Virus record (IMG/VR): IMGVR_UViG_3300014501_000012
Coordinates: 20,832 to 84,831 of that record
Length of the DNA stretch: 64,000 nucleotides
Direction: 5' to 3' (one strand)
Source of the DNA: a virus
Positions 5,127-28,245 of the stretch are shown here, one piece after another. A program made the translations under genes and the position numbers. Within the stretch, counting starts at the first letter, position 1, and every line of letters begins with the position of its first letter. The notes below the pieces were generated by a model. It did no database searches. It was given only the letters and a program-made list of their open reading frames with translations, and was not told the DNA's origin.

Positions 5127-7430
5127 GTGGGTGAGTCCTTGAAGAACCGTTTCGGTCAGATCGACGAGCAGGGTCGCATCGTCGCCCTCGTCGCCGAAGG
5201 CCTCCCGGCATGGCCGGACGACGGCAACCTGTCGGAGTTCACCGACGAGCAGCTGGCCGAGGTCGAGGCGGCTCTTCTCACCGAGAGCGCCGAGATCATG
5301 GGTGCCGGCGACGATGCCGACATCGATCGGGCGGAGCAGATCGTCGAGCGCGTGGGTGCTCTTCGCACCGAAGCCGCGACCCGGATGGCCGCGGCCGACG
5401 AGCCCGAAACCAGCCCTGAGCTGGAGGAACTGGCGGCCCTGAGCGACGAGGACCGTGCGGCCGTCGTCCAGTACGCAGCCGACGTGGCCGCCATCCCACC
5501 GCCCGCCGACGAGGACGCCGCCCTCGCCCGCCGGCGCGACGCCCTCGCCCGCCTGGGCGACCTGACCCCGCCCCCGGCGCCGGAACTCCAGGGCCTGAGC
5601 CACGAGGCCGCCGCCTCCTACGCCGAGGCAACCGCCGCTGGCATGGCCCGTGGGTTTGCCCCCGTGGTCGAGGCCCTGACCACGGCCGCGACCGCCCTGG
5701 CCACGGCCAACACCCCGCCCGCCCCCGGAACGACCATCACCGCCCGCGAGCTGGGGCGCTACCGTCCCTCGCAGTTCGCTCCGGCCGCCGGGACCCCCGA
5801 GGCCCCGCGTCCCCGCGGCCATCTCGTCCACCGAGGAGATGTCGCCGGGATGGCCATGGGCGCTGAGTTCACCTCGATGCGCCAACTGGTCGACGCCTTC
5901 GTCACCCGCCACCGGACCATCGGCCAGTCGGCGGCCGAGGACGAGCAAGTCCTGATCGCCTCCTACCAGCAGGACGACCCTCCGCCCGAGCGCGACCTCC
6001 GCCACATGAGCGACAGCCGCGAGGTGCGCCAGATGATCGACCGGGTGGTGGGACCCGATGCCATGGGCCGCGACCCGTGGAACCTCAGCCGGGAGGTCCC
6101 GATCAGCCGGGGCGGCATCGCCGTGACCGACTCAGAGGCCCTGGTGGCCTCCGGGGGCCTGGCCGCGCCGGTCGAGCCGTACTACCCCCAGCTGGTCCTC
6201 GCTGTCTCGGACCGCCCGGGGCTCGGATCGATGCCCGGGTTCATCACCGAGCGCGGAGGCATCCGGCTGGTGCTCCCGCCCAACCTCAACACGCTGGCGA
6301 ACGCCGTCGCGCCGGGGACGTTCGCCGACGGCGTGGCCGCGACCTCGACTGCCTGGACCTCGGCCACCGCTGAATTCACCGACGCCGACGTTGGGCAGCC
6401 GATCATCGGCACCGACATCCCCGCCGGGACGATCATCAACTCGGTGACCAACGGCACGACCCTCGTGCTGTCGGCGGCCACCACCGCCTCGGCCACCGGC
6501 CTGACGTTCTACCTGCCCTCGCGCAACCCGACCAACCTCGGAGGCCCCGTGGGGAAGGTCACCGCGGCCCAGGACGCGGCCGGACCGCCGAACTCGGTCA
6601 AGTTCACCTACGACGTCGCGAACGGGACGCAGGTCGAGCACGACGTGTACTCGGTCTACACGTCCCTCCAGTTCGGCAACCTGACGGCGCGGACGTTCCC
6701 CGAGCAGGTCGAGGCGAACATCCGCCTCGCCAACGCCCTGGCCGCCCGCGTCGCCGAGACGGCGATGCTGGACTACATCACCGGCTGGTCGACCCTGATC
6801 ACGGCGGCCAAGACCTTCGGCACCGCCCGCCAACTGCTCGCCCAGTTCGAGCACATGGCGGCGATGTACCGGAACAACAACCGGATGGACCCCGCCGCCG
6901 TGCTGCGTTTGGGCATCCCGGCCTGGGCGCTCAACGCCATGCGTTCGGACTACATCTCGTCCTTCATCGGGGGAGCGGAGAACTGGGGACTGTCGGACGA
7001 GGAGCTGAACTCCTGGTTCGCCGACCGCAACATCCTCCCGTTCTTCTACCTGGACGGGCCGTCGGACATCTCCCAGCTCTTCCCGGTCATCGGGTCGGGC
7101 GCGATCAACACCGGGGGGACGAATACCGCCACCCCGGTCGCGCTGCCGGACTACCCGGGACAGGGAGCGACGACCTCGTTCCGGACCAAGGTCGTCTCGT
7201 TCATGTGGGCCGAGGGGACGTGGCTCGGGTTGACGACGGGCGAGCTCAACATCGGGCTCGTGCGGGACTCGATCTTGAACTCGAGTAACAGATTCCGTAA
7301 CTTCGAGGAAGTATGGGAATCGCCTGCGTTCGTCGGGCTCCAGTCCCTCCGCTGCGTTCACACCGTCGCCGCCGACGGCACCTACGGTGCGGCCGTGTCG
7401 ATCACGCTCGGTGTCGGGTCCGGCCTGTAA
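5127..7430 (+). CDS. Major capsid (hexamer-type) protein with N-terminal scaffold-like acidic/helical region
   Basis: GGAGGT SD before GTG 5127; ALVASGG..AP..YY, RGGIRL and GNLTARTFPE motifs resemble actinophage cluster-B-like capsid proteins. Confidence 0.8.
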   Translation: MGESLKNRFGQIDEQGRIVALVAEGLPAWPDDGNLSEFTDEQLAEVEAALLTESAEIMGAGDDADIDRAEQIVERVGALRTEAATRMAAADEPETSPELEELAALSDEDRAAVVQYAADVAAIPPPADEDAALARRRDALARLGDLTPPPAPELQGLSHEAAASYAEATAAGMARGFAPVVEALTTAATALATANTPPAPGTTITARELGRYRPSQFAPAAGTPEAPRPRGHLVHRGDVAGMAMGAEFTSMRQLVDAFVTRHRTIGQSAAEDEQVLIASYQQDDPPPERDLRHMSDSREVRQMIDRVVGPDAMGRDPWNLSREVPISRGGIAVTDSEALVASGGLAAPVEPYYPQLVLAVSDRPGLGSMPGFITERGGIRLVLPPNLNTLANAVAPGTFADGVAATSTAWTSATAEFTDADVGQPIIGTDIPAGTIINSVTNGTTLVLSAATTASATGLTFYLPSRNPTNLGGPVGKVTAAQDAAGPPNSVKFTYDVANGTQVEHDVYSVYTSLQFGNLTARTFPEQVEANIRLANALAARVAETAMLDYITGWSTLITAAKTFGTARQLLAQFEHMAAMYRNNNRMDPAAVLRLGIPAWALNAMRSDYISSFIGGAENWGLSDEELNSWFADRNILPFFYLDGPSDISQLFPVIGSGAINTGGTNTATPVALPDYPGQGATTSFRTKVVSFMWAEGTWLGLTTGELNIGLVRDSILNSSNRFRNFEEVWESPAFVGLQSLRCVHTVAADGTYGAAVSITLGVGSGL

Positions 7431-7493
7431 GCCCTCCCCTCTCGGGGCAGAGGCCCAAGCAACCACGAGAAGACGAGGGGAGGTGATGACCAG

Positions 7494-8894
7494 ATGGCAG
7501 TCCAGGAGTTCTCAGCCGTAACAGGGCTCGACTTCACCCTGGAGACTCCGGTCCCGCTGGTCTCACCGCCCCTCTCGCTCCTTGGCGAGGCCCGGTCGCT
7601 GATCGACCTGGCGGGGATGTACGCCCGCCGGCAGGCGGCGTTGGAGAAGATCCAGTCCGGGGCCGAGCAACTCGAGGCCTACGACCGCGACGGGGTCGTG
7701 GGCGACGACGACCAGCCGGGCGAGGCAGACAGCCTCGAGGACACGGTCAAGGCGCTCGAGCAGCAGATGTCCGAGTGGACGCGTGAGTTCGAGACCTGGG
7801 ACGACGGCATCGCCCGGATGCAGGGCTGGGAGCAGGCGATCCAGTACCTCCCCGAGCTGGGCAACGCCGAGTCGATGTCGGTCTTCGCCCCGGGCACGGT
7901 CCCGCCCGTCGGCTCTGCGCTGGCATCGGGTGCGACGAAGCAGACCGGGTCCAACCAGGAGCCGTTCTACTGGTACGACCCGTTCGTCGCGGTAGGCCGC
8001 GACAGCCGGTCGCTTTTCGGGTGGCCGAACACCGACTTCGCCTCGCGGCTCCAGCGGTGCCAGCGCGCCCTCCTCGCCCACGAGTCGTGGCAGGCCGAGT
8101 ACGAGTTCTGGACGGGCACACAGGTCCCGACGAACTACCACCTCTCGGCGAGCCCGAGCACGGCCGTGGTCAGTCCCCACCGGACGATCGATGCCTGGCC
8201 GAACCCCCTCGCCCCGCCCGGGACGACGCTCGGAACCCCCGAGAGCCTGAGCGACTCGCTCGCCGCCCTCGACCAGTCGATCGCCAACGCCGACGCCGGC
8301 ACGGGGATGATCCACGCCTCGTGCTACCTCGTCCAGAAGTGGGCGCAGGTCTACCCGTACCTCCGGGACCCGTCGGGGAACATCCGGACGGTGAACAACA
8401 ACCTGATCGTCCCCGGCTACGGCTACCCCGGGACCGGGCCGGACCAGGCGAGCCGGTCGGTGACCGACGTGGTCACGACGGACGGAAGCCCCGACATCAC
8501 CTCGGCCTCGGCCGCCTTCACGGACCTCGACATCGGCCGCCCGATCAACGAGACCGACGCCGGGGGTCACATCCCGGCCGGCGCGGTGATCCTCACGGTG
8601 ACGAGCCCCACCGCCGCCGTCCTGAGCGTCCCGGCCACGGGAGCGGCCACGGGGATCGATGCGACGCTTCCGGGGGTCGGGGGCAACGCGACGGGGTCGG
8701 TCGTCCAGTGGGCCTACGCGACGGAGATGGTTTTCCACCTCCAGGGCGACATCGTCTCGTACCCGTCCGACCTCCGCGAGATCTCGCCGGCCTTGTACCA
8801 CAACTCGGCCGACATCCGCGTCGAGCGGTCCCACGCTCTGCTCACCAACCGGCTCCTCCGGGCAGCCGTCGCCGTCGACACGTCCACCACGTAA
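7494..8894 (+). CDS. Second capsid protein (pentamer-type/minor capsid)
   Basis: GGAGGT SD; directly after the major capsid gene; PF.A, E..FWTG, GMIHA, GYGYPG, WAYAT and VER motifs. Confidence 0.65.
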   Translation: MAVQEFSAVTGLDFTLETPVPLVSPPLSLLGEARSLIDLAGMYARRQAALEKIQSGAEQLEAYDRDGVVGDDDQPGEADSLEDTVKALEQQMSEWTREFETWDDGIARMQGWEQAIQYLPELGNAESMSVFAPGTVPPVGSALASGATKQTGSNQEPFYWYDPFVAVGRDSRSLFGWPNTDFASRLQRCQRALLAHESWQAEYEFWTGTQVPTNYHLSASPSTAVVSPHRTIDAWPNPLAPPGTTLGTPESLSDSLAALDQSIANADAGTGMIHASCYLVQKWAQVYPYLRDPSGNIRTVNNNLIVPGYGYPGTGPDQASRSVTDVVTTDGSPDITSASAAFTDLDIGRPINETDAGGHIPAGAVILTVTSPTAAVLSVPATGAATGIDATLPGVGGNATGSVVQWAYATEMVFHLQGDIVSYPSDLREISPALYHNSADIRVERSHALLTNRLLRAAVAVDTSTT

Positions 8895-8906
8895 GGAGAA
8901 GCAACC

Positions 8907-10067
8907 ATGGCCACAAATGGTCCAGTGCAAATCCAAGGCTGCGCATACCGGTTCGCCCGGCTCGCGGCCGACGGCTCGATCGTCAGCTCCTCGTCGGCGA
9001 TGATCCAAGACGACCGCCCGCTGGTGAAGATCGACATGAAGCCCGAGCTCGAAGAGGGCGTCGAGATCACCCCCAAGTCGGCGTGTGGCGTCCCGGTGAT
9101 CTCGTACAAGGACTGCAACCGGTACAAGCGGTGGACGATCGGCGTGACCCTCGGCGACTGGGACCCCGAGCAGTTGGAGCTCGTCGGGCAGGGCGCCGTC
9201 ATCACCGCGCCGGGATCGTCCGGGCGCGCCTTTGCCGACGGCGTGGTGACGATCAACGACGCCATCGTGACCTCCGCCGCCGACGCGGCGTTCACGGCGG
9301 ACGACGTCGGGCGCCCGATCACCGACGCCGGGTTCACCGTGGCCTCGTGCACCACGGCCAGCACCTCGGCCGACGTCACGACCACGGGGACGTTCGACAC
9401 TGACGGGGTCTCGGCGGGCATGACCGTGACCGGGACGGGGATCGCCACCGGGACCTTCGTCCTGAGCGCGAACTCCCAGACCGACCTCACGCTCAGCCAG
9501 CCGGCGACGGCCAGCGGCACGGTCACCCTGACCTTCTTCATCCTCCCCGCCGGGAACTACATCGCCGAGGTCTTCTCGGCGACCGAGGCCCGGATGAACT
9601 TCATCGCTCTCAAGACCGGGGCGGCCCTGACGCTCACCCTCGGATCGCAGGCGGTGTCCACGATCGGGTACCAGTACCCGCGGCTGCTCGCCGTCGAGTG
9701 CCCGTTCGGGATCTCGATCGAGGTCTGGTCGAAGCTGATCGTGCGCGGCACCGGCTACCAGGGCACCACGCCCTACCCCTCGGCCGGCACGGCGGAGATC
9801 CCCGGATCGGCCTACGTGCGGACCGGCATCTTCCGCGCCTTCCTCTGGCACGGAGCGCGCACGATCGAGAACAAGGAAGCCGGCCCGATGTTCGAGGGCT
9901 GGGCGATCGAGAACCCGAACTTCGGCACGGGTCCGGCCGACGACTGGCGCGTCACCGCTCTGCCGGCTGATGGCGAGCCGGTCCCGACGATCGCCTGGTG
10001 CAACGAGATGGCGGACTTCGAGCTGCCCACTCCGCTCCAGCCCGGGTACCAGACTCTTCCGATCTGA
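8907..10067 (+). CDS. Major tail (tube) protein
   Basis: AAGGAG SD; R..RL..DG, K.ACG, DPE..EL and IEVWSK motifs of actinophage major tail proteins; synteny. Confidence 0.75.
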   Translation: MATNGPVQIQGCAYRFARLAADGSIVSSSSAMIQDDRPLVKIDMKPELEEGVEITPKSACGVPVISYKDCNRYKRWTIGVTLGDWDPEQLELVGQGAVITAPGSSGRAFADGVVTINDAIVTSAADAAFTADDVGRPITDAGFTVASCTTASTSADVTTTGTFDTDGVSAGMTVTGTGIATGTFVLSANSQTDLTLSQPATASGTVTLTFFILPAGNYIAEVFSATEARMNFIALKTGAALTLTLGSQAVSTIGYQYPRLLAVECPFGISIEVWSKLIVRGTGYQGTTPYPSAGTAEIPGSAYVRTGIFRAFLWHGARTIENKEAGPMFEGWAIENPNFGTGPADDWRVTALPADGEPVPTIAWCNEMADFELPTPLQPGYQTLPI

Positions 10068-10096
10068 TTCCCACCAACTGATCCCGAGGAGGATCC

Positions 10097-11047: not shown

Positions 11048-11087
11048 TCACCCGCCGAAGTTCGGCACCACATAGGATCGAGAACCA

Positions 11088-11726
11088 GTGGGACTCACCG
11101 ATTCGGTACTCGAGGACCTGTCCGCAGCCGTCACCCGGGACAGCCCGTTCTCGAATCCCGCCATGTGGATGGCCCTGTTCAACCAGGACCCGGGGCCCGG
11201 GGCGGGACTCGTGGGCGAGATCACGAACGGCACGGGGGTCGAGGCGCGCCAGCTCGTCACGTTCTCCGGATCCGACGGGACGGACTCGAGCACCGCGGCC
11301 GATACCTTCACCGTGCCGAGCGGGAGCACCGTGACCTGGATCGGGTTCTTCGACCTCCAAACGGGAGGGGCTTTCCTCGGGGGCTTTCCTCTTGTCGGCG
11401 CTCAGCAATTGGCGATCGGGATCTCGGGCGCGGCCACGATCTACGCGCCGGGCCACGGTCGGTCGATAGGAGATCCCGTCAGGTGCTTCACCGTGCCCGG
11501 CATCACCTCGTCGATCCCCGGCGGCCTGGCAGCCGACACCGTCTACTTCGTCCAGTCCGTCACCGCCAACACCCTCACGCTCTCGGCGACCGACGTCGGC
11601 GCGGCGATCGACCTGATCTCGTCCGGGGCGTTCAGCTTCGCCCTCGACGACAGCCAGACCTTCGCGCTCACGGGCAACTTGGTCTTCCCCGCCACCTCGG
11701 GCGTCGTGTACGAGACGGCGTCGTGA
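11088..11726 (+). CDS. Virion protein (tail-fibre/decoration-like fold with inserted small beta-barrel)
   Basis: MALF..DP..EI...ARQ.VTF and VTWIGFFD..TGG.FLG motifs interrupted by HG..IGD.V...GGLA..TVYFV..LS.T segment. Confidence 0.6.
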   Translation: MGLTDSVLEDLSAAVTRDSPFSNPAMWMALFNQDPGPGAGLVGEITNGTGVEARQLVTFSGSDGTDSSTAADTFTVPSGSTVTWIGFFDLQTGGAFLGGFPLVGAQQLAIGISGAATIYAPGHGRSIGDPVRCFTVPGITSSIPGGLAADTVYFVQSVTANTLTLSATDVGAAIDLISSGAFSFALDDSQTFALTGNLVFPATSGVVYETAS

Positions 11727-12595
11727 CGGTGGCCCTGCCGGCGACCGCCGGCCAAGCCCAGTCGGTCCACATCCTCAACCCCTGGTGCGAGGAGGACGAC
11801 CTCCCGGCCGGCCGGCTCCGCAACGTCACCGACGTCGACCGCCAGACGATGATCCTCGCCGCCACCGAGACCCTCTACCGCTTGAGCGGTCGCCAGTACC
11901 GGTCGGGCCGCTCGATCATCCGCCCGACCCCGATCGGCGGGGCCTACGGGAACCAGAGCTACCTCTACCCCTACTCGTCGATGTCGGGTTACGGCGCGGC
12001 GTGGGGATTCGCCGCTGGGTGGGCGTGGTCGGCGGTGGGCATGGGGTGGTGGCAGAACGGACAGGACCTCTCCGAGGTCGTCCTGCAGGGTCCGGTCCAG
12101 CGGATCAACGACGTGATGGTGAACGGGACGAGCCTCGGCCCCTGGCCACCGGCCAACTCGAACTACACGCTTTATGACGGACGGCGGCTGATTCGCAACA
12201 CCGACGGGGCCGGTCAGAACGTCGGCGCGTGGCCGTGGAACCAGCAGCTACAACTCCCGCTCACCGAGCCCGGAACCTGGGGGATCGACTACGACTGGGG
12301 CCAGTCGCCCGGCGCGATGGGCAAGGCCGCGTGCATCGCGTTGGCGACCGAGTTCATCCTCGCGCTGACCGGGACCTCGAACGTCCTCCCCCAGCGCGTG
12401 GTCTCGGTCGCGTCGCAGGGCGAGACGATCCTGGTCGGTGATCCGCTCGCGTACATACGGGAGGATCTGACGGGCGTCCCGATGGTCGACATTTTTCTCA
12501 ACAGTGTGAACCCCTTTAAATTGCGGCGCAGGGCAGCTTTTCTCAGTCCCAATTCTGTGCAAGGGCGCGAGCAGACCGGGTTCCCCACGCCGTGA
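11723..12595 (+). CDS. Head-to-tail adaptor
   Basis: GTGA overlap; AATETLYRLSGRQY, LPQRVVSV.SQG and LTG...VD.FL..VNP motifs. Confidence 0.75.
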   Translation: MTVALPATAGQAQSVHILNPWCEEDDLPAGRLRNVTDVDRQTMILAATETLYRLSGRQYRSGRSIIRPTPIGGAYGNQSYLYPYSSMSGYGAAWGFAAGWAWSAVGMGWWQNGQDLSEVVLQGPVQRINDVMVNGTSLGPWPPANSNYTLYDGRRLIRNTDGAGQNVGAWPWNQQLQLPLTEPGTWGIDYDWGQSPGAMGKAACIALATEFILALTGTSNVLPQRVVSVASQGETILVGDPLAYIREDLTGVPMVDIFLNSVNPFKLRRRAAFLSPNSVQGREQTGFPTP

Positions 12596-13531: not shown

Positions 13532-13535
13532 CTCC

Positions 13536-15347: not shown

Positions 15348-15360
15348 CGAGAGGAGAGCA

Positions 15361-15729: not shown

Positions 15730-16079
15730 CGAGTTGGGCCCAAACGAACTGGGCGTGGATCGATTCGCTGCTCTTGGAGAAGGGGCTCAACCCGTTCGAG
15801 GTCCCCTGGCCGAGGCTGGCGAACTTCATCTTCACCCAGTGGGTCGGGAGTATCTGGGACGACGAGGAGCGAGCGGACGTGATCAAGTCACTCAGTTGGC
15901 CGGAGGACGAGATGCAGGGAGCGCAGGGGCAGGACCGGTCGGTCCGGGCCGGCGCGCAGGCGCTCGGGCTGAACCCCGACCAGATGGTGGCCAACGCGTG
16001 GGAGCAGCGCCAGCTCGCGCTCCAGCGCAAGGCGGCGACTGAGGGCATGGCGGCGCGGGCCGAGGAGCCGACCGGGTGA
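15709..16079 (+). CDS. Tail assembly chaperone extension (probable -1 frameshift product)
   Basis: -1 frame ORF overlapping the chaperone end at GGGAAGGGG; no good own start. Confidence 0.55.
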
Positions 16080-19000
16080 CGATCGTCGGCGAGGGGATCA
16101 TCTGGCTCAGGCCGTCGACGGCGGGCTTCGCCGAGGAGGCCGAGGGCAAGCTCAAGTCCTCGCTCGCGTTCTTGGGCGGCGGGAGTTCGGTCGTGGGCGG
16201 GATCGTGGCCGGGACCCTCGCGGCCGGCGCGGCCGTCACCATCGTCACGGCGAAGATGGCGATGGACTTCCAGAGCGCCGAGGCCAAGCTCTCGGGAACC
16301 GCGGACATCTCAGCGAAGGCCGCGGCCAAGATCGGGACGGCCTTCCTCAACACGATGGGGTCCTCGGCGTTCTCCGGCGAGACCCTTCTCAAGGCGTACA
16401 CCCCGGTCTCGGCCCAACTCGCCCGGGTCGAAGGCCGGACCCTCTCGGCCACGCAGGCGACCCGGTTCATGGCGGTCGCGTCGGATCTGGCGAAGGCCTC
16501 GGGTAAGGATCTCAACACCTCGACCTCGACCCTCGCCCAGACCTTGTTCACGTTCGGCATACGGACGAAGGACGCCGCGGGCGCGGCGAACCTCCTCTTC
16601 AACGCCGCCCGGATCACGAACACCCCGATCGACTCCCTCTCGAACATCATCGACAAGCTCCACGCGAAACTCGGGACCCTCGCGCCGACCTTGAAGGACA
16701 CGGCCTCGATCATCGCCCTCCCCTCGGTCGCCGCGCTCGGGAGCCGCGGGGCGATGCAGGTCAGTTCCGCCCTCGAGCACCTCCTGACCCAGGCGTCGGC
16801 GACCTCGTCGGGGATCACGAAGGCCGTGACCGCGGCCCAGGCGAAACTCACGACGGCGAGCGCCGACGTCGCCAAGGCCCAGCTCAAACAGCAGCAGGCC
16901 CAGGAGGAGGTCACCGCGTCGGGGACGAACACCCTCGCCCAGCAGATCAAAATGTCAAACGCCCAGGACGCGGTCACCGCGGCGGTCGGGAAGCAGACCC
17001 TCGCGCAGCAGGCCCTCACCGCGGCGCAAGGGGACAACGTCGCGGGATCGACCCAGGCCAAGGCGCTCCTCGACCAACTCGGCCTGTCGTCCCTCTACGT
17101 CCACGGGAAGTTCGTCGGGCTCCGCGAGGTCATCGCGACCTTGGGCCCACGGCTCGCGGCGATGACCGAGCAGAATCGGAACCTCGCCCTGCAAACCCTC
17201 TTTGGGACCGGCGCCGCTCAGGTCATGGGGCACGTGCTCGCGGGTGGCGTGACCGCTTTCGACAAGTCCACGGCGGCGGTGTCCCGACACAACGCGCTCG
17301 CCCACGCGGCGGCGGCGATCGCCAAGACCCTCTTCGGACAGCTCGACGTGCTCCGGGCGTCCGTCGAGGACGTCGCGGTCAAGCTCGGACAGATGCTCCT
17401 CCCGTACATCCAGAAGTTCGTCCACCTTCTGACCGAGGGCTTCGGGTGGGCGTTGAAACACAAGGAGGTGATGATCGCTCTGGCCGGGGTTCTTGCCGGC
17501 ATCGTTGTCGGCTCACTCATGGCCGTCGCAGCGGCGTTGCTCGCGGTCGACGTCGCCGGGCTTCCGATCTGGTTGATCGCCGCCGCGATCGCCGCGCTGG
17601 CCGTGGGCGTGTTCGAGGCCTACAAGCACATCCCGGCTTTCCGGGACGAGGTCCACAAGCTCGGCGACGACATCAAACGGATCAACTGGAAGGACGTCGA
17701 ACGGGACGTGAAGTCCTTCGCCAAGGTCGTGGGCAAGGATCTGACCGAGGCCTTCCGCGACGCCTCGGCGTGGCTGAAAGAGGGGATGAAGATCTTCGAC
17801 GCGCTCCCGGGTCCGCTCAAGGACATCGTCTCGCCGATCCTCGGGATCGTCGTCGCCGTGAAATTCGTTGCCCAGCACTGGAAGGCGGCCTTCACCGATA
17901 TTGACCACGCGACACGGGACTTCGTCGGCGGTCTCGAGGCCGCGTGGCGGGACTTCCTCGACCCGATCGTCCAATGGGTCGTGGATTTTTGGCACTCGCT
18001 CGTGAACTTCTGGCACACCTACGGCGGGGAGATCACCCGGATCACCCGCGGGCTGTTCGGCCTGATCGAATCCGTCGTCCGGACCTTCATCCACGTGACG
18101 ACCGACATCTCGAAGGCCCTGTTCGACCTGCTCATCCCGATCTTCCGCGCCGGGTGGGCACTCGTCAAGGGCGTCTTCCAGGCGGCCTGGGACTTGATCG
18201 TGGGCGTGGTCAAGGTCGCGTGGCGGACGGTCGAGGGCGTCATGGAGGTGGCGAAGGACGTCGTGCTCGGGATCTTCGAGATCTTCGTCTCGCTCCTGAC
18301 CGGGCACTGGTCGAAGGCCTGGAAGGCGCTCGTCCATATGGTGGTCTCGGTCAAGAGCGACATCGTCAACGCAGCCAAGGGCGTCCTCGAGGCCGTGCTC
18401 AACGCCGTCGGCCGGGCCGCCCTCGATCTCTACAAGGGGGCGTTCGCTGCGGGGAAGGATCTGGTGATGGGATTGTGGAAGGGGATCAAGGAGGCCGCGC
18501 ATCTGGCGACCGACGCCGTGAAGTCCGTCGGCCACGGGATCCTCTCGGCGGCCAAGTCCGTGCTCGGGATCTTCTCGCCCTCGATCCACTTTCAGGAGTA
18601 CGGGAAGGGAACCATGCAGGGCCTGGCCAAGGGGATCCGGGACAACGCGAACCTCCCCCAGGCCGAGCTCAACAAGCTCAACCTCCACATCGCACCGAAG
18701 GACAAGCAGAAGGCGGTCGACTGGTTCAAGGACGTCGCCAAACTCGCCAAGCAGAACCACGAAAGCGCCGGATCAGCGGCCGGTCAGCTCGCCCACCTCT
18801 TCGGCGCCGGCCCGTCGGGGTCTGACGCGGCGAAGAAGGCTGCGACCCAGCTCAAGCAACTCACCGAGGCGATCACACTCCGCAAGTACCTCCAAGCGAT
18901 GGCCCACCAGAACCACCAGGATGTGACGGCCGGGAACAAGACAAGCCGCGACGGGTCGAGCCAGGTCGGCAAGCACGTCGACATGGCATCACTCCACGCG

Positions 19001-19174
19001 ATGACCAACCACCGTCAACTCCTCGACGAGCAGAAAACTCAGACGGCGATCCTCCGCCAGTTGAAGATCGACGGGGAGAAGCCGAAGAAGATCACGATCA
19101 AGGGGATGCCCGGAACGACCACGGGGGCCGGTAGCAACGCGGTCGGGGCGATCGCTTCGGGGACGATCCGATGA
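16076..19174 (+). CDS. Tape measure protein
   Basis: 1032 aa, Ala-rich helical, Trp-periodic repeats, LGIFSPS motif. Confidence 0.9.
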   Translation: MTIVGEGIIWLRPSTAGFAEEAEGKLKSSLAFLGGGSSVVGGIVAGTLAAGAAVTIVTAKMAMDFQSAEAKLSGTADISAKAAAKIGTAFLNTMGSSAFSGETLLKAYTPVSAQLARVEGRTLSATQATRFMAVASDLAKASGKDLNTSTSTLAQTLFTFGIRTKDAAGAANLLFNAARITNTPIDSLSNIIDKLHAKLGTLAPTLKDTASIIALPSVAALGSRGAMQVSSALEHLLTQASATSSGITKAVTAAQAKLTTASADVAKAQLKQQQAQEEVTASGTNTLAQQIKMSNAQDAVTAAVGKQTLAQQALTAAQGDNVAGSTQAKALLDQLGLSSLYVHGKFVGLREVIATLGPRLAAMTEQNRNLALQTLFGTGAAQVMGHVLAGGVTAFDKSTAAVSRHNALAHAAAAIAKTLFGQLDVLRASVEDVAVKLGQMLLPYIQKFVHLLTEGFGWALKHKEVMIALAGVLAGIVVGSLMAVAAALLAVDVAGLPIWLIAAAIAALAVGVFEAYKHIPAFRDEVHKLGDDIKRINWKDVERDVKSFAKVVGKDLTEAFRDASAWLKEGMKIFDALPGPLKDIVSPILGIVVAVKFVAQHWKAAFTDIDHATRDFVGGLEAAWRDFLDPIVQWVVDFWHSLVNFWHTYGGEITRITRGLFGLIESVVRTFIHVTTDISKALFDLLIPIFRAGWALVKGVFQAAWDLIVGVVKVAWRTVEGVMEVAKDVVLGIFEIFVSLLTGHWSKAWKALVHMVVSVKSDIVNAAKGVLEAVLNAVGRAALDLYKGAFAAGKDLVMGLWKGIKEAAHLATDAVKSVGHGILSAAKSVLGIFSPSIHFQEYGKGTMQGLAKGIRDNANLPQAELNKLNLHIAPKDKQKAVDWFKDVAKLAKQNHESAGSAAGQLAHLFGAGPSGSDAAKKAATQLKQLTEAITLRKYLQAMAHQNHQDVTAGNKTSRDGSSQVGKHVDMASLHAMTNHRQLLDEQKTQTAILRQLKIDGEKPKKITIKGMPGTTTGAGSNAVGAIASGTIR

Positions 19175-20292
19175 ACAGCGCCGGCTACCCGACCTATCTG
19201 GTCAACGGCGCGGTCTCGGTCAACAGCGGGGTCGCCGACGAGAACGGGTCGTTCTGGTACCTCGACGGGGAGATCGCCGGGTGGGACTCGCCGGACATGC
19301 GCCAGACGATGCTCACGCGGATCGGCAACACGCCCTCGGCCGACGGGGAGATCGCGGCGGACAACCACTACCGCGGCCGATCGCTGGTCTTCACCCTCAT
19401 CGCCGAGTGCGCGTCCGAGGCCGCCCGGGAAGCGTCTCGCCTCCTCCTGGCCGGCGCGCTGGACCTGATCAGCACCACCGGGACGTTCCTGGCCGAGGAG
19501 GTGATCCCCAAACAGGTCTCGATCATCCGCTCGGGGAACTCGAACCAGGGCAAGCTTGTGATGACCGACTGTGGCTTCGCCATGAAGAACGCCACCGAGG
19601 CCCTGTCGCGCACCGTCACCGATGCCGTGACCACGGGCAGTTCGGAGAACCTGGTCAGCGCGTCGGCGAACTTCGGGACGGGTGACATCGGGCAACCGGT
19701 GACGGGGACGAACATCCCGCCCGGCACCGTGGTCGTCTCGATCACGTCCACGATCGAGGTCGTGATGTCGAACGAGGCCACCGCGTCAGGGAGCGACCAG
19801 ACGGTGACGATCGGCGGGTACCCGGGCTTCCCCGTCGGGACCGTCGTGTGGCTGCTCAAGGCCGAGATCGAGATCTACGCGCAGGACCCCCGGAAATACT
19901 CGCCCGTCCCCAACGAGGCACCGTTCGAGTCGAACGTGGCGATGGTGACGAACGAGGGGAACACCGCCACCCAGAACGCGGTGATCACGATCGAGGTGAC
20001 CGGAGGCGGGGACGGTCCGTTCCACATCGAGATCGTCAGCGTCGCCGACATGGAGTTGCTCGTCCCCCCGCTCCCGGCCGGCGCGCCCGCCCTCGATCCG
20101 ATCCCGACCGAACTCGTGGTCGACCTCTACAACAAGACCATCACCGACGGGGAGGAACGCAGCTACTACTACCTGCGGAACCTCCAGACCCCGTGGCTCA
20201 CGATTCCCCCGGGGGTCTGGGCGGTCTCGATCAGCGGGGCGGGCGGCAGCAACATCCCCGGGAGCGTCGTCAGTTACTCGGCGTGGATCTGA
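19171..20292 (+). CDS. Distal tail protein (Dit)
   Basis: Follows tape measure; GWDSP, A.DPRKY, N.GN and W..IPPG motifs. Confidence 0.8.
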   Translation: MNSAGYPTYLVNGAVSVNSGVADENGSFWYLDGEIAGWDSPDMRQTMLTRIGNTPSADGEIAADNHYRGRSLVFTLIAECASEAAREASRLLLAGALDLISTTGTFLAEEVIPKQVSIIRSGNSNQGKLVMTDCGFAMKNATEALSRTVTDAVTTGSSENLVSASANFGTGDIGQPVTGTNIPPGTVVVSITSTIEVVMSNEATASGSDQTVTIGGYPGFPVGTVVWLLKAEIEIYAQDPRKYSPVPNEAPFESNVAMVTNEGNTATQNAVITIEVTGGGDGPFHIEIVSVADMELLVPPLPAGAPALDPIPTELVVDLYNKTITDGEERSYYYLRNLQTPWLTIPPGVWAVSISGAGGSNIPGSVVSYSAWI

Positions 20293-20295
20293 TCC

Positions 20296-21744
20296 GTGGC
20301 CCGCGTCCGCGTCAACAACCAGTTCGGGTTTCTCGGGGCTGACCCCGGTATCAGCGGAACCACGCTGACCTTCGGCGCGGCCCCCGTTCCCCCGTTGCCC
20401 ACCCTCACTGGCGAGGACTACATACCGTTCACCCTTGACGCTCTGTCTGACCGGTTCGAGATCGTTCACCTGGTCGCGCCCTACACGTCGGGAGATCTGA
20501 CCGGGCCGATGGTGCGGGAGGCCGAGGATGCCGTCAACTTCCCCGCGGTCGCCCACAACCTGCCGGCGACGTGGAAGGCGTGCCCCACGGCCCTCGACTA
20601 CAGCGCCACGATCTTCAACGTCCTCTACTACGGGGCCGATCCGACTGGGGTGAACGACAGCACTGCGGCGTTCCAGGCGGCGATCAACGACGCCACGGCC
20701 AACGCTGGGTCAGACGCGCTCGGTCCGGTCTACGTGCCAGCCGGCAAGTACAAGATCAGCGGCACGCTCACGGTGGAGAACGTGATCGGGTTCCGCATCT
20801 ACGGGGACGGTAAGTGGCTGACGTTCATTCAACCCACCACGGCGCTCGCGGGTCTGGCCGTGTTCAGGCTCCAGGACTGTGACTCCCCGGCGTTCGAGGA
20901 GATGAACGTCGCCGGGAACTCGAGCGGCGCACCGCTTTACCTGCTCCAGTTCAACGTTGGCAACCCGATCCTGCTGGTCAACACCCGGGCCTTCGTCAAG
21001 AGCGTGTTCTTCGGATCCTCGAGCGCCGGGAGTGCGACGAACGGGATCGCGTGGACGACATCGGGACCGGACGACAACAACGATCAGTCGGTGGTTCTCG
21101 ACTGCGACTTCTACAACATGACGAACGCCTACTACATCGGGCACTCGAACTCCGAGCAACACACGTTCATCGGCGGCACCACGAATGTGACGGGGGCGAC
21201 CGTCCTCTGCGCCGGGGGTGGGTACAAGATGATCAGCACGGTCATCATTAACACCTCGGGGACGATGTTCGAGTTCGGGGCCGGGACCTACCGGCGCGGG
21301 ACGGAGATCATCGGGGTCAGCTCAGAACAGTCCGGCGCCTGGGTGAACGCCGTCACGGGGGCGATCGGACTCAACCTGCGGATGGTCGGGTGCGTGTGTG
21401 ACGGAGCACCGGCCAGCTCGACGCCAATCAACTTCGAGGCGGACATCACGTCCCACTTCCGGGCGACCAACTGCGATTTCGTCAGCGGGCAGACGGGAAC
21501 GATCCTCAACTTTCCCACAGCGGCTCTGTCGTCGTTCACTGACTGCACCCTGGACTGCTACTCGATCACCTTCGACTCGGCGCTGAACCTAATCGGCAAC
21601 CTGTTCCTCGCCGGAAACGTGACGATGACCAACGGCGGTTCGGGGGTCTATCTGGGATTCGCCAACACCGGGGGCAACGTGCCGGACAGCGACCTGAGCG
21701 CAGATGATCTCATCGCTCCCTTCCTCAACCAAAACTACTTCTAA
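20296..21744 (+). CDS. Tail spike with pectate-lyase-3-like beta-helix (putative depolymerase)
   Basis: FNVLYYGADPTGVNDSTAAFQAAI..VYVPAGKY motif. Confidence 0.8.
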   Translation: MARVRVNNQFGFLGADPGISGTTLTFGAAPVPPLPTLTGEDYIPFTLDALSDRFEIVHLVAPYTSGDLTGPMVREAEDAVNFPAVAHNLPATWKACPTALDYSATIFNVLYYGADPTGVNDSTAAFQAAINDATANAGSDALGPVYVPAGKYKISGTLTVENVIGFRIYGDGKWLTFIQPTTALAGLAVFRLQDCDSPAFEEMNVAGNSSGAPLYLLQFNVGNPILLVNTRAFVKSVFFGSSSAGSATNGIAWTTSGPDDNNDQSVVLDCDFYNMTNAYYIGHSNSEQHTFIGGTTNVTGATVLCAGGGYKMISTVIINTSGTMFEFGAGTYRRGTEIIGVSSEQSGAWVNAVTGAIGLNLRMVGCVCDGAPASSTPINFEADITSHFRATNCDFVSGQTGTILNFPTAALSSFTDCTLDCYSITFDSALNLIGNLFLAGNVTMTNGGSGVYLGFANTGGNVPDSDLSADDLIAPFLNQNYF

Positions 21745-21753
21745 GGAGCCACA

Positions 21754-22170: not shown

Positions 22171-22694
22171 TGAGCGACGGGATGGCTGGGAACGTGGGTG
22201 ACGGGTTCTCCATCGAGCCACCGTTCCCCAACACCGAGCCCGTGTACCAGGGCGTTCTAACGCTCGACCCAACGTCCGAGACCTTCCTCCGCTGGTCGCC
22301 GTTCCTCGCGCTGCCCCCACAGTTCCAAACGTTGACAGCCAACGGGGCGGTCACGATCGACGCGGCGATGGGGGACGTCATCGTCAACCTCGAGGCGAAC
22401 GCCACGAGCACTACCATCGTCAACTCGCTCTACAACGAGGACCAGTATCCAGGGTACTCACCGCGGCCGGGTCAACTCCTGAGGGTCACCTTCGTGCAAG
22501 ATGCCACGGGTGGCCGCACCTACGCGTGGCCCTCCAACTGCGCCTTCGGCGCGGGCGTGACCACGACGTCGCCGATCGTGACCGTCGCGGCGGGAGCACC
22601 CACCGACACGGTGGCCCTCTCTCAGACCTCGGTCCTGTTTCGTTGGGACGGGACCACGTGGCAGGAGATGTCCAGAGCGGTGAGCGTCGGGTAG
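22170..22694 (+). CDS. Minor tail protein
   Basis: QDATGGRT.AWP and FRWDGTTW motifs. Confidence 0.65.
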   Translation: MSDGMAGNVGDGFSIEPPFPNTEPVYQGVLTLDPTSETFLRWSPFLALPPQFQTLTANGAVTIDAAMGDVIVNLEANATSTTIVNSLYNEDQYPGYSPRPGQLLRVTFVQDATGGRTYAWPSNCAFGAGVTTTSPIVTVAAGAPTDTVALSQTSVLFRWDGTTWQEMSRAVSVG

Positions 22695-24868
22695 TGCCCT
22701 TCGGTACCGATCCCCACGGGGACGCTCCCTATGGCGACTCGTCCTCGGAGGGGGCGGTCTTCCCGAGCATCGTCACCGACGACGCGCTGACGACCGACTC
22801 GTGCGGGGGTGGAGTGGTGCTGGCGCGCCCGACCACCGACACGGCCCTGACTACCGACACTCTGTTCGATCACGCCGTCTCGGTGAGCGACACGGCCCTG
22901 ACCACGGACGCGGTCGGGGTGGGGAAACACTTCGCACGGCTCTCCCCGGACGTCTCGTACACGACCGACGGGCTCCTCGGTCCGATCGTCTTCGTCTCGG
23001 TCCGCTGCCTGACCCGCGTCGTGGTCTCGGTCGCTTGCTACCGTCCACTCCCGCCGCCCCAGCCCGTCCCCGGGCCGAGCGGTCTGCACGACTATGAGGT
23101 GATCACCTGCGACCAGTTCGGGGTCGCCTACGGAGAGATCGTCACGGCCGTCCCGACTCAGATCGACTGGGACCTTGACGACCTCGGATCGGTCCTGATC
23201 GACATCGACATCCTCGACCCGAGCCTCTTGAACCTCCTCCCGCAGTCGGCGATCCCGGCCGTGCGTGAGATCCAGATCTGGCGCGACCAGTCGTTGATCT
23301 TCTGGGGCCTCCCGATCTCGGCCACCTACGACGCGTCACAGGTCCACCTCACGTGCTCGGGCCATCTCTGGTTCCTCTCCACGAGGAACTTCGGCCCGGT
23401 GATCACCGAGTACCTGACCAACCCCCAGTTCGAGCAGGGCTTCCTCGATTGGGTCCCGGTCGGGGTCACGAGTTCGATCGAGGACGCCCGGGCCGGCGGG
23501 ATCGTGGCCCTCGGTCGGTACGCTGCGCGGCTCACCCAGTCCAGCGCCAACGAGGACACGTACATCCACCAGATCCTCACCGGGATCTCCGCGCCGCCAG
23601 AGGAGTCGACCTTCTTCGACCTCGCCGCCTGGCTCTACATTGACCCCGCCTACGCGTCCCCCGGACCGGCGCTCGACCAGCGCGGGCTCTTCATCCAGTC
23701 GGTCATCGGATCGACCGTCCAGGACTTCGAGTTCGAGACGATCACGGCCTCGACCGTCATCGGTCAGTGGGTGCGTTTGGAGACGGGGATCCTCGTCGAG
23801 GCCGGGACGACGGTGGACCTCGACATCCGGCTCTACGCGCCGGGGGGTTCGGTCATCTGGGACGCCGTACAACTCACGGTCGAGGAGTCGGTCGGGTCGA
23901 CGCTCGCGGGCTCCGATGTCTATTTCATCATCCTCGAGATCCTCCAGTACGCCCAGGACCCGACACGCGGGAAGTCCAACGTGAACCTCCCCGTGATCGG
24001 AGCGAACACAGGGGTCGTCCTCCAGCGCAACTACCAGTTCTCGGACAACGGCGGGATCCTCGACGCGCTCAACGAGTTCCCCACGATCGGCGCGTGCGAC
24101 TTCGAGGTGACCTACGACGAGACCGGTCACTTCCGCGGGTTCCAGGTGTTCTCCCCGGCGAAGGGCTCGGTCAAGTACAACGCGGCGATCGAGATGGACC
24201 TGGGCCAGGTCACCGACCTCCAGGGCGCGGTCGACGGCTCGCAGGTGGGGACGGCCGTCCGATACCTCGGCCAGGGCTCGACCGGTTCGTCGGCCGAGAT
24301 CGGGTTCGCCAACTTCCCCTGCTATCTGGGTGGGCGTGTCTCGGGCGTCGCCGTCCTCGTCCAGGGATCGACCACGGCCCAGGCGGGCGACATCGACTTC
24401 ACCGCCCTCGACGTAGGACAGGGGATCTACTGCCAGACCCCGGGGGTGATCCCCGTCGGGACGGTCATCGTCGAGGTCCTGAGCGCGACCGAGGCCGTGA
24501 TGTCGAACCCATCGGCGATCACGGCCAACCCCTCGGTGATCGGTATCGGCGGGATCATCATCGACTCCGTGCAATCGGCGATGCCCGACCAGATGATCGA
24601 CACCCTCCAGGCCTCGGCCGAGCAGATGTTGGCCCTGACCCAACGCCCGCAGAACCTCCCGACGCCGAAGATGCGCGCCGACGGGCCGGCGGGACTCTTC
24701 GGGAAAGTCGAGACCGGTGACGTCCTCCCGGTGATGTTCAACTACGGCTGGTGTACCTTCGGCCCGGTCTACATGCGCCTCGTGACCCTGACCCTCTACC
24801 CACCGACCGAAGAGTTGGAGTTCACCTTGAACCTTCCGGGGACGCTCTCGACCGTGGGGGGTGGCTGA
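22694..24868 (+). CDS. Baseplate hub/minor tail protein with carbohydrate-binding-like insert
   Basis: IQIWRD..LIFWG hub motif; LTNPQFEQG...W.D.VQL CBM-like segment. Confidence 0.7.
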   Translation: MPFGTDPHGDAPYGDSSSEGAVFPSIVTDDALTTDSCGGGVVLARPTTDTALTTDTLFDHAVSVSDTALTTDAVGVGKHFARLSPDVSYTTDGLLGPIVFVSVRCLTRVVVSVACYRPLPPPQPVPGPSGLHDYEVITCDQFGVAYGEIVTAVPTQIDWDLDDLGSVLIDIDILDPSLLNLLPQSAIPAVREIQIWRDQSLIFWGLPISATYDASQVHLTCSGHLWFLSTRNFGPVITEYLTNPQFEQGFLDWVPVGVTSSIEDARAGGIVALGRYAARLTQSSANEDTYIHQILTGISAPPEESTFFDLAAWLYIDPAYASPGPALDQRGLFIQSVIGSTVQDFEFETITASTVIGQWVRLETGILVEAGTTVDLDIRLYAPGGSVIWDAVQLTVEESVGSTLAGSDVYFIILEILQYAQDPTRGKSNVNLPVIGANTGVVLQRNYQFSDNGGILDALNEFPTIGACDFEVTYDETGHFRGFQVFSPAKGSVKYNAAIEMDLGQVTDLQGAVDGSQVGTAVRYLGQGSTGSSAEIGFANFPCYLGGRVSGVAVLVQGSTTAQAGDIDFTALDVGQGIYCQTPGVIPVGTVIVEVLSATEAVMSNPSAITANPSVIGIGGIIIDSVQSAMPDQMIDTLQASAEQMLALTQRPQNLPTPKMRADGPAGLFGKVETGDVLPVMFNYGWCTFGPVYMRLVTLTLYPPTEELEFTLNLPGTLSTVGGG

Positions 24869-25446: not shown

Positions 25447-25449
25447 CAC

Positions 25450-26517: not shown

Positions 26518-26534
26518 TCCTCAGTGCCAGGTCT

Positions 26535-26981
26535 ATGCTCAGCGCCGTGACCCCCAAGAACTCCGCGGAGGGCGACGGCGAACAAGGCCTCGTATCGGCT
26601 CCCCTCGACGAGCCTGACGCGGACGGGGGCACGGAGGAGGATGCCGCGGAGGGCGCGGACCCCGCGGCTCAGCCCACATCAGATCCCCCGGTCGATGACG
26701 GGCTTCAGGCCGAAGAGGCTCCCGATGCCGTCGAGGAGCCGGCGGAATCCGCGCCCGCGGTGTCCTCCGAGCCCGACGAGGGATCGATCCAGGTCCCGCT
26801 CAACGCTGACGGCGTGGGGTCGGTGCGCGTCCCGGTCAACTGCATGGAGATCCTCGACGTCCGCGGCGACGGGATGCGGACCTGCACCTGGAACTCCGTC
26901 CCCCGCCACCCCGAGCTGACCCGCGTCACGCTCGCGGGCGAACCCTTCGCTACGATCTCGATCACCGTCCTCACCCGATAA
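26535..26981 (+). CDS. Hypothetical acidic protein
   Basis: D/E-rich N-terminus. Confidence 0.55.
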   Translation: MLSAVTPKNSAEGDGEQGLVSAPLDEPDADGGTEEDAAEGADPAAQPTSDPPVDDGLQAEEAPDAVEEPAESAPAVSSEPDEGSIQVPLNADGVGSVRVPVNCMEILDVRGDGMRTCTWNSVPRHPELTRVTLAGEPFATISITVLTR

Positions 26982-26992
26982 GGAGAACCCGA

Positions 26993-27712
26993 ATGTCCGA
27001 CACGACAGGAACACCCCCAGCAGGTTCGCAGCCCCTCGCCGGCCCACCGGGCTCCGACCCGACCGAAGCCCTGACCGGAGCGGGCAAGCCCGCCGAGGGC
27101 GCGCCGGAAACGATGGCGGCCGGCCAGCCTCCAGCGGGCGACGGGGTCGAGTCCCTGACGGGATCCGGAGCCCCGGCCGAAGGCGACGGACTGGCGGACG
27201 AGCCGGCGGATCCGGCCGAGGTCGAGGCGCTTGAGGTCGACATCCAGACCGACGCCGAGGGGACCGGGTGGGAGATCATCGACGAGCCCCTCGCCGGCCT
27301 CGTGGCGACCCTCCCCGCCGGGGAGCAGGGGTCGGTGGCTCTCACCGCCCCCGAGGGCGACCCCGAAGGCAAGGAGTCGGCGTGCGTGACGGTGACCGGG
27401 GCCGCGCCGAACTCGGTCGTGATCGTCACCGTGACCGAGGGCGAGACGCCCCCGGCCCTCCCGCCCCAACCCGAGCCCGTCCCTGCAGGCGGAGTCCACA
27501 CGATCCAGGACAACGTCACCGACCCGGAGAACCCGCGCACGGTCCAGGCCGAGGGCATCACCGTCCAGGACAACGTCTCGTGGGCCGACGAGGAGAAGGA
27601 AGAGGACCGGGTCCTGACCGAGCGCACCGTCCAGGCCGACGGGACCACGAGCGACCACCGACCCCTTCCGCCCGTCGACGCCGACGAGGAGCCCGCCGCC
27701 GAGGACGAGTGA
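26993..27712 (+). CDS. Highly acidic, probably disordered protein
   Basis: AAGGAG SD; D/E/P/G-rich; QDNV and RTVQA duplicated. Confidence 0.65.
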   Translation: MSDTTGTPPAGSQPLAGPPGSDPTEALTGAGKPAEGAPETMAAGQPPAGDGVESLTGSGAPAEGDGLADEPADPAEVEALEVDIQTDAEGTGWEIIDEPLAGLVATLPAGEQGSVALTAPEGDPEGKESACVTVTGAAPNSVVIVTVTEGETPPALPPQPEPVPAGGVHTIQDNVTDPENPRTVQAEGITVQDNVSWADEEKEEDRVLTERTVQADGTTSDHRPLPPVDADEEPAAEDE

Positions 27713-28245
27713 GCACCACCATCGTCGTCCTGGGGCTCTGGACCCCACCGGGCGGCGCGGTCCCTCCCGACGGAGAGATCACCTTCCAGCTCGACCAGGA
27801 CCTGATCGACCTCGCGACGGGCGAGACGATCTTCGCCCAGACCATCCCGTCACCCCTCGTCCTCGGGGCCATCGCCCAACCCCTGGTGGCGAACGACGCC
27901 GGGGTGAGCCCGACGAACAGCCAGTACCGGGTCGACGAGAACCTCCTGGGCGCGCCGGAGCAGAGCTACTACGCCACCGTCCCGGCGGTTCCCCCGGGCT
28001 CGCGGTCGATCACCGACGGGGCGATGACGGTCGGGTCACAGATCCTCGAGTCGGCCACGGCCAACTTCACCAGCGCCGACGTGGGGGCCTTCCTCTTCGC
28101 CCCGTTCCTGCCGATCGCGGTGACAGTCCAGTCGGTGATCGACTCCGCCCACGCCTCGCTCACGAGCGCCCCGAGTGAGAATCTTTCGAGCCTGCCGGTC
28201 CTGATCGGGGCCTCGGTCCTGCTGTCGGCTATCCGGCCGACGTAG
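27709..28245 (+). CDS. Virion protein carrying the shared FTxxDVG module
   Basis: GTGA overlap; L.AND...P...Y.V.E motif plus the module. Confidence 0.65.
   Translation: MSTTIVVLGLWTPPGGAVPPDGEITFQLDQDLIDLATGETIFAQTIPSPLVLGAIAQPLVANDAGVSPTNSQYRVDENLLGAPEQSYYATVPAVPPGSRSITDGAMTVGSQILESATANFTSADVGAFLFAPFLPIAVTVQSVIDSAHASLTSAPSENLSSLPVLIGASVLLSAIRPT

Follow-up and report, generated by a model that had tools for sequence, protein, structure and literature searches.

Analysis of a 64,000-nucleotide stretch of DNA from an uncultured, high-GC phage (hereafter the window; bases 20832-84831 of the IMG/VR virus record IMGVR_UViG_3300014501_000012, which has 84,831 bases and is rated 100% complete; G+C 63-71%) revealed a module of about 68 residues that lies in frame in six plus-strand genes of the structural gene block. 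The six proteins hold seven copies, since the tail-tube protein has one copy nested in another. We put the probability at about 0.6 that the module is an autonomous plug-in domain, a member of a large uncatalogued family, with an exposed accessory role in decoration or adhesion. That it is an old inserted decoration domain is very likely; that adhesion is its job is a tentative proposal made by analogy.

One module in six structural genes

A preliminary description of this DNA had proposed one homologous in-frame module in six genes, and this proved sound: the six segments translate in the frame of long plus-strand open reading frames (ORFs) and carry the motif that had been noted. The copies are listed below with E values from an external profile, which was built from 287 copies in other proteins and searched against 1160 ORFs of the whole 84.8-kb genome (i-E, independent E value).

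6315-6515, + strand: copy 1, residues ~442-508 of the major capsid protein (MCP); E 3.9e-23
8454-8669, + strand: copy 2, residues 321-392 of the MCP-adjacent protein (cap2); E 5.8e-22
9225-9329, + strand: N-terminal half of the outer tube copy, profile positions ~1-35
9330-9539, + strand: inner, nested tube copy; i-E 5.4e-6; hhalign probability 89.5%, E 2e-6
9540-9644, + strand: C-terminal half of the outer tube copy, profile positions ~36-69; i-E 1.4e-4
19609-19818, + strand: copy 5, residues 147-216 of the Dit-position protein; E 1.3e-24
24335-24553, + strand: copy 6, residues 604-676 of the hub-position protein; E 6.6e-12
28003-28209, + strand: copy 7, the most diverged, residues 99-167 of a 178-residue protein; E 1.5e-16, leave-one-out E 5.2e-6

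The external profile found six ORFs at E 6.6e-12 to 1.3e-24, with the next match at 0.13, and no further copy in the part of the genome outside the window. The alignment and hidden Markov model of the excised segments that had been suggested as a check gave the same picture: each left-out copy was recovered, at E 5.2e-6 to 1.4e-15, when leave-one-out profiles were searched against the 877 six-frame ORFs of the window (MCP 2e-13, cap2 1.5e-14, Dit-position protein 1.4e-15, hub-position protein 7.7e-9, 178-residue protein 5.2e-6), and the best non-member had E ≥ 0.23. With a profile of five copies the tube protein emerged as the sixth host (E 3e-8), its outer copy being split around a whole inner one.

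In principle, the biased composition of a high-GC genome, with stretches rich in Thr, Ser, Ala and Gly, could have produced the similarity as an artefact. The match to a solved protein described below does carry a high HMMER bias term (36.1 bits, bias 19.4), and one profile (A3) gave spurious summed matches to WD40 repeat proteins. However, the best E value was 0.0027 for reversed ORFs and 0.2 for ORFs shuffled in 20-residue windows, as compared with 1e-12 to 1e-24 for the real ones; because these controls score far worse, composition does not explain the matches, and the artefact is already refuted by this result and by the leave-one-out searches. Positions that are not compositional are fixed among the 287 copies (F22 97%, D26 96%, I42 92%, D5 91%), and the copies in four of the hosts correspond to clean indels relative to homologues, which leaves next to no chance for this explanation.

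The best-conserved positions of the 287 copies are R1, D5, S17, F22, D26, G28, I42 and S54, together with G33, I36, P37, A57 and I68. Alternating runs of hydrophobic and Thr/Ser residues at positions 40-45, 50-54 and 64-68 may be read as beta strands, and the module is probably a Thr/Ser/Ala-rich, all-beta unit of about 68 residues. Of 281 module-bearing proteins, 17 show nesting in the order N-terminal half, whole copy, C-terminal half, invariably with the break within profile positions 33-40, a G-x-G-I-P loop that is also the loop of variable length. Because the module fits a tight loop both of another copy and of six unrelated hosts, its two ends would have to lie close together and the fold of the host would be left intact; such close ends are the likely reason for the promiscuity of the module.

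A further, divergent copy had been placed at ~1540-1780 in ORF 46-3582, which was called an SGNH fibre. This copy was not supported by HMMER, which gave no match with either profile, or by hhalign, which gave a probability of 1.3% over 21 columns. Pfam shows no SGNH/GDSL match for this ORF at E ≤ 0.01. A 1219-residue module-bearing ORF upstream of the capsid gene in the related phage G004 was tried as support for the fibre copy and rejected, having no detectable homology to ORF 46-3582.

Insertion sites, age and turnover

Comparison with homologues that lack the module revealed gaps of ~65-80 residues in the MCP, cap2, the Dit-position protein and the hub-position protein, so that the clean insertion expected in the preliminary description is established for these four; the 178-residue gene is not among them. 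The MCP of Arthrobacter phage Mimi covers residues 224-452 and 533-797 of the MCP of the window while its own numbering runs from 409 to 413, which corresponds to ~80 extra residues here. For cap2, the module occupies the same site in 65 of 66 close homologues, the exception being P0286, from which just that stretch is missing; among 21 distant homologues (276-487 residues) 20 are without it, and one of these, P0291, goes from residue 259 to 271 over query residues 320-404. Four related phages from IMG/VR (G001-G004; MCPs 54-60% identical) extend the comparison. The Dit-position orthologues of G002 (307 residues) and G004 (315 residues) lack the 66-residue stretch and that of G003 has it. The hub-position protein has the module in all 25 close homologues, in two of them visible only with the HMMER filters off, and in none of the six distant ones; homologue P0218 aligns to residues 180-595 and 672-742, its own residues running from 438 to 441 over query residues 596-671.

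For the tube protein, homologues from cultured phages align to residues 1-100 only and stop just before the module, and the ESM Atlas model was matched over residues 3-386 to a cluster of 222 residues without the module (217 aligned; template-modelling (TM) score 0.83 by that cluster). A 180-residue homologue of the 178-residue protein in G001 has the module; no homologue without it was found. The hub homologues P0194-P0217 (595-1220 residues) also differ in their N-terminal additions, for which precomputed Pfam assignments give PF13385, PF21783 (one such protein is named YVTN beta-propeller in its source) and PF25174, and this tip protein seems to swap other modules too.

The copies in the window are old and diverged, as the preliminary description had stated in setting aside a recent duplication: they share 16-48% identity as proteins. 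At the DNA level they are linked by stretches of 36-100 nucleotides at 69-81% identity and by a 23-nucleotide match (91%) between the Dit- and hub-position copies; near-identical DNA copies, by which a mobile cassette would be recognized, are absent. All four related phages have the module at the same sites in the MCP, cap2 and the tube protein, and the same sites are occupied in phages that are only 43-60% identical. The insertions predate the split of this phage from its relatives, a case that rests on the shared sites and not on a tree of the copies.

Module copies are nevertheless still being gained and lost within the lineage. Both the window and G002 have the nested tube copy, which the tube proteins of G001, G003 and G004 lack; it is therefore a later event. 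The Dit-position copy is shared by the window and G003 and is found in neither G002 nor G004, and G004 has an extra copy in another large ORF. Among relatives of cap2 there are nested (P0228, P0229), tandem (P0256) and extra N-terminal (P0289) copies, and a relative of the hub-position protein (P0119) has a second copy at a different site.

Near-complete genomes have six (window), five (G004) and four (G001) module-bearing ORFs. Of 20 records with a cap2 homologue, G004 has five matches; the 19 more distant ones comprise two with a single match and 17 without any. A set of 28 unrelated viral loci (~20 kb each), found by way of the module, includes 22 with one bearing ORF, five with two and one with none. 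Since most of these loci have a single one, six hosts in one virion lie at the high end, and the window, with six proteins and seven copies, has the highest count so far in its lineage. In orthologue pairs the module is 44-63% identical and the rest of the protein 49-73%, the module being lower in eight of nine pairs and equal in one; it is somewhat less constrained than the host core, yet retained.

The phylogeny of the copies that had been called for was built from 97 rows of our choosing and 69 columns. The rows comprised the seven window copies, 13 from G001-G003, ten from hub homologues with full profile coverage, 15 from cap2 homologues (five picked and ten drawn at random from the rest), 28 from 18 of 79 cellular loci and 25 drawn at random from 287 representative copies, all others being left out. 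Copies group by host protein and not by genome (31 label changes, a value reached in 0 of 200 shuffles, whose mean was 57.4), and the outer tube copies of the window, G002 and G003 cluster together; 62 of the 93 inner branches are without resolution.

These data bear on the suggestion that the module spread within one genome, which is overstated: the sites are shared with phages 43-60% identical and the tree follows the host protein, although an approximately unbiased (AU) test did not reject a single clade of the seven window copies (p 0.195). The source of the insertions may have been copying within a genome or separate captures. A stronger form of the idea, in which a mobile coding cassette is active today and has recently been copied around this genome, could draw on the seven copies, on gain and loss among relatives and on the same AU result. 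It is at odds with the 16-48% identity of the protein copies, the short and diverged DNA matches, the shared sites and the grouping by host protein; neither an endonuclease nor flanking repeats were noticed, although no systematic search for them was made. We regard an active cassette as highly improbable.

The structural gene block and the wider family

The structural gene block lies on the plus strand in the first 28 kb of the window. Its assigned genes are:

46-3582, + strand: 1178-residue protein, N-terminal ~300 residues matching head-decoration phrog_2647 (E 1.1e-6)
4992-7430, + strand: MCP, 812 residues from the first GTG, host of copy 1; phrog_777 major head protein (E 1.9e-42)
7494-8894, + strand: cap2, 466 residues, host of copy 2; phrog_779, function unknown
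8907-10067, + strand: tail-tube (major tail) protein, 386 residues, host of copies 3 and 4; assigned by tblastn and Atlas
11165-12595, + strand: head-tail adaptor; phrog_783 (E 1e-39)
16076-19174, + strand: tape measure, 1032 residues; phrog_58 (E 2.4e-39)
19171-20292, + strand: Dit-position protein, 373 residues, host of copy 5; directly 3' of the tape measure gene, weak match to minor-tail phrog_5577
20296-21744, + strand: pectate-lyase-like protein; PF12708 (E 1.4e-14), tail-spike PHROGs also matched
22526-24868, + strand: hub-position minor tail protein, 780 residues from the first GTG, host of copy 6; weak matches to minor-tail PHROGs
27709-28245, + strand: 178-residue protein of unknown function, host of copy 7; GTG start overlapping the previous stop codon

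Further small genes close the block, and the 178-residue gene is the last of them, with the coordinates, GTG start and length that had been reported for it. The database call for the hub-position protein has 724 residues (P0161) as compared with 780 from the first GTG.

Two of the names first given to the hosts are supported: the MCP (phrog_777) has 25 tblastn matches among actinophage capsid genes, and the tube protein is identified by tblastn, in which seven of ten records matching residues 1-100 are annotated 'major tail protein', and by structural matches in the ESM Atlas to major-tail/YomU_Tube clusters. Dit, hub and 'second capsid protein' reflect gene position or weak matches. Outside the module the MCP and cap2 share no BLASTP similarity, so cap2 is no detectable paralogue of the MCP; cap2 has no tblastn match in the phage collection, and a profile of its family finds no PDB relative. 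PDB searches with the Dit- and hub-position proteins returned the module match or noise only, a scan of both against viral contigs found no relatives, and megablast of 4992-10067 against the phage collection gave no match. Assignment of the tube protein to Phage_tube_2 found no support, with no Pfam hit at E ≤ 1 and a BLASTP alignment to P0167 that runs through the module alone.

The tube gene directly follows the capsid genes and precedes that of the head-tail adaptor; Microbacterium phage Big4 (L008) is annotated with the same unusual order (gp79 major tail protein, gp80 head-to-tail adaptor). The pectate-lyase-like gene, which has no module, sits between the Dit- and hub-position genes.

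The module is uncatalogued, as had been supposed. The six excised segments match no Pfam family at E ≤ 10 beyond sub-threshold noise, and nine module-bearing proteins match no NCBIfam model. Of the best 150 external matches, 82 (all ≤ 700 residues) were scanned, and these gave scattered Pfam and PHROG families from other parts of the hosts (TIG 4, GDSL 2, Phage_tube_2 1, Phage_capsid 1, and others). Because no Pfam, NCBIfam or PHROGs model covers the family, the annotation of thousands of proteins (virion, hook, pilin-like and adhesin-like) is blank at the module. Several candidate families were rejected: PASTA (PF03793; best 14.6 bits against a cut-off of 23.2, in one of six segments), the PknB PASTA chains (E 0.4-6.5 over 13 columns only), the lambda gpD-type decoration protein (PF02924; 14.3 bits against a cut-off of 29.1, in one of six segments), DUF4042 and similar families (below Pfam cut-offs), and the WD40/'WRAP-T' PDB matches of profile A3, which are sums of many sub-threshold short-motif repeats, each with i-E > 100.

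One solved chain was matched, PDB 8ECI chain 1 ('Decoration protein'), over residues 11-72 of 126. Three profiles gave E values of 5e-8, 3.9e-12 and 3.6e-16, the last from a 43-sequence profile, and phmmer with single proteins gave E 0.0018 for the whole MCP (at residues 447-513) and 7.6e-4 for the Dit-position protein. 8ECI is from Arthrobacter phage Bridgette, whose gp7 is described in the available text of 10.1101/2022.09.09.507160 as forming dimers around the five-fold vertices or pentons; in the available text of PMC13033339 the Bridgette decoration protein is a dimeric cement protein that bridges two hexons.

In a library of 1.84 billion representative proteins the family numbers 2997 representatives at E ≤ 1e-3 and 806 at E ≤ 1e-10, with one to nine copies in each of the best 150 matches. 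With a homologue already solved and a family that is large and also cellular, the module is not the undescribed system for which it had been taken, although a search of the open literature found no paper describing its domain family. A tblastn search of the phage collection with the MCP module gave no match at E ≤ 1; this is weak evidence of rarity, because the BLAST low-complexity filter may hide matches. The four-copy protein P0013 matched, in the 50,697 records of that collection, only MW202566.1 at 20051-20842, in a gene annotated 'hydrolase' of an uncultured Caudoviricetes from Manatee Spring.

When species-representative genomes were scanned for the pattern, 130 of 334 candidate stretches were confirmed as relatives; 79 loci were kept, and the profile finds module ORFs in 70 of these cellular loci. 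They belong to Actinomycetota (Acidimicrobiia, Blastococcus, Pilimelia, Actinoplanes, Dactylosporangium), Chloroflexota, Verrucomicrobiota, Planctomycetota and others. Among ten such host ORFs, TIG domains occur in four, PATR repeats in one and a pilin-type N_methyl motif in one; the other four are a Phage_tube_2 tube protein, the flagellar hook protein FlgE and two ORFs without a Pfam match. In the FlgE (L015:4371-5864, from the Acidimicrobiia metagenome-assembled genome (MAG) DATBEZ010000035.1) the module lies between the D1 domain and the C-terminal rod motif, and the gene belongs to a genuine operon, FliI-FliJ-FliK-FlgD-FlgE-MotA-MotB-FliL-FliM. By identity this copy is the closest relative of the MCP copy (63% over 65 columns), a likeness that may hint at the host group of the phage. 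Giant surface proteins have five to eight copies. The longest array found is viral, with 15 tandem copies in a 2032-residue ORF (L099:8993-15088, IMGVR_UViG_3300022555_003161). In a Candidatus Dormibacteria MAG (L040:1799-6551) adjacent ORFs of 800 and 756 residues have one module each (228-295 and 227-294), and clustering of the two copies at 99% support suggests a tandem gene duplication.

Other phages have the module in three Phage_tube_2 tube proteins, a collar fibre, a GDSL lipase and an XM1_gp53/Phage_cement minor capsid protein, and tube-protein clusters related to the tube of the window carry PKD or Big_2 domains instead.

Role of the module and comparison with known systems

As a plug-in accessory domain, the module would sit in tight loops of its hosts, including a loop of itself, with the host fold intact. 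Outward display of one copy per capsid subunit, together with two per tube subunit and a few at the tail tip, would amount to several hundred to about a thousand copies per particle. This estimate is based on a T=7 or T=9 capsid of ~415-535 subunits and on a 1032-residue tape measure, which corresponds to a tail of ~150 nm with ~230 tube subunits of two copies each. The module would be a non-essential surface domain that could provide weak multivalent adhesion to cell-envelope or matrix polymers. Adhesion fits its occurrence on the outer parts of polymers, the long tandem arrays, the dispensable sites and the Big_2 and PKD domains found in its place in related tubes. For Ig-like domains on tail tubes, weak carbohydrate adhesion to cell surfaces has been proposed (available text of PMC8718954).

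Several points weigh against this reading. Function is deduced here from the genes of an uncultured phage, and the fold, the closeness of the ends and the outward orientation are all predicted features. The names Dit, hub and 'second capsid protein' derive from position or weak similarity, and two thirds of the inner branches of the tree lack resolution with 69 columns. In the Atlas model, residues 145-217 of the Dit-position protein resemble portions of clusters of tube, pilin-like, SU10-adaptor, stabilisation-protein, sheath and tailspike proteins (TM 0.83-0.95 by query), which speaks for the reading, but such values mean little on a 73-residue stretch, as the tool itself warns. The cement or decoration role of the solved homologue, which bridges capsomers, favours a structural role at least on the capsid.

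This last point makes inter-subunit stabilization a strong rival by analogy, especially on the capsid, although as an account of all copies we consider it rather unlikely. Neighbouring copies would then pair or clamp subunits and reinforce capsid, tube and tip, much as the gp7 dimers bridge capsomers around the penton according to the available accounts of Bridgette. The fusion of the module to a Phage_cement/XM1_gp53 minor capsid protein in another phage is consistent with such a role, hook insertions could likewise stiffen their polymer, and the inserted domain of the YSD1 tube protein stabilizes its ring (available text of PMC8718954). However, close relatives differ in whether they have the Dit-position copy and the nested tube copy, with no other visible change, and these copies are therefore not needed for assembly, and tandem arrays of 5-15 copies in giant proteins resemble stalk or adhesin modules. 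Nor does the available text of 10.1101/2022.09.09.507160 and PMC13033339 assign the contacts with the capsid and within the dimer to one or the other half of gp7.

The abundance of Thr and Ser, one or the other being the commonest residue at ~25 of the 68 profile positions, raises the question of whether the module is a scaffold for O-glycosylation of the virion. O-glycosylation is reportedly found on some mycobacteriophage capsid and tube proteins. No glycosyltransferase (GT) of family GT2 (PF00535) or GT1 (PF00534) was found in the 84.8-kb genome at E ≤ 0.01 in a search limited to these two families, both of which were detected in all 14 control genomes, and the conserved R1, D5, F22, D26, G28, P37 and I42 look like determinants of a fold, not like Ser/Thr tracts. 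A glycosylation scaffold is thus very unlikely.

A more speculative idea, and a long shot, is that the virion adsorbs through homophilic contact, its modules pairing with those on surface appendages of the host itself. It arises from the gp7 dimer and from the related domains on hook, pilin-like and giant surface proteins of likely host phyla, which are up to 63% identical to the MCP copy. If true, it would provide a first capture step that is based on mimicry and independent of a receptor, and would account for the retention of one domain on head, tube and tip together.

The shuffling of accessory domains onto virion proteins is a well-known phenomenon, and the module represents no new principle. 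What the window adds is the later, nested copy, site-by-site presence and absence, the fixed nesting loop, and the hook and pilin-like contexts. The lineage amounts to a natural experiment, in which close relatives either have or lack the module at defined loops of the capsid, tube and tip proteins. It marks permissive insertion sites that are useful for phage display or engineering, and it gives a handle on the role of accessory virion domains, which is still open for Ig-like domains.

The closest known counterpart of the module is the N-terminal domain of Bridgette gp7, with which it shares sequence homology (residues 11-72) and which is likewise a virion surface component of an actinobacteriophage. 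gp7 is a free-standing protein of 126 residues that forms dimers round pentons, according to the sources cited above, whereas the copies in the window are all internal to larger ORFs.

The analogy with Ig-like decoration drawn in the preliminary description is apt in that the module is an accessory domain on virion proteins and is missing from homologues. Like phage Ig-like domains, it is small and, by prediction, beta-rich, is promiscuous on capsid, tube and tip, is usually dispensable and is shared with bacterial surface proteins. Such accessory domains on phage structural proteins were reportedly described by Fraser et al. (2006, J Mol Biol 359:496); examples are Big_2 on lambda gpV and T5 pb6, Big_1 on YSD1 and FN3 on SPP1 gp17.1*. 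In contrast to these, the module has about 68 residues and not 80-100, is inserted in loops and not appended at a terminus, and nests within itself. None of the Ig-like Pfam families (Big_1, Big_2, FN3, I-set, PKD) matched the six segments at E ≤ 10 or the whole proteins at E ≤ 0.01.

The insertion domains of HK97-fold capsid proteins (the P22 I-domain and the T4 gp23 insertion domain) are similar in being extra domains spliced into a capsid protein that has homologues without them, and such domains are mentioned as stabilizers in the available text of 10.1101/2022.09.09.507160. They are specific to capsids, whereas the module is common to tube, tip, hook and pilin-like proteins, and PDB searches with the module gave no match to either of the two.

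The outer, D2-type domains of FlgE and pilins offer a last parallel, as the same module occurs in the middle of FlgE, which we take to be the exposed D2 region, and in N_methyl pilin-like proteins. Those domains decorate cellular filaments, whereas the copies described here belong to proteins of a virion.

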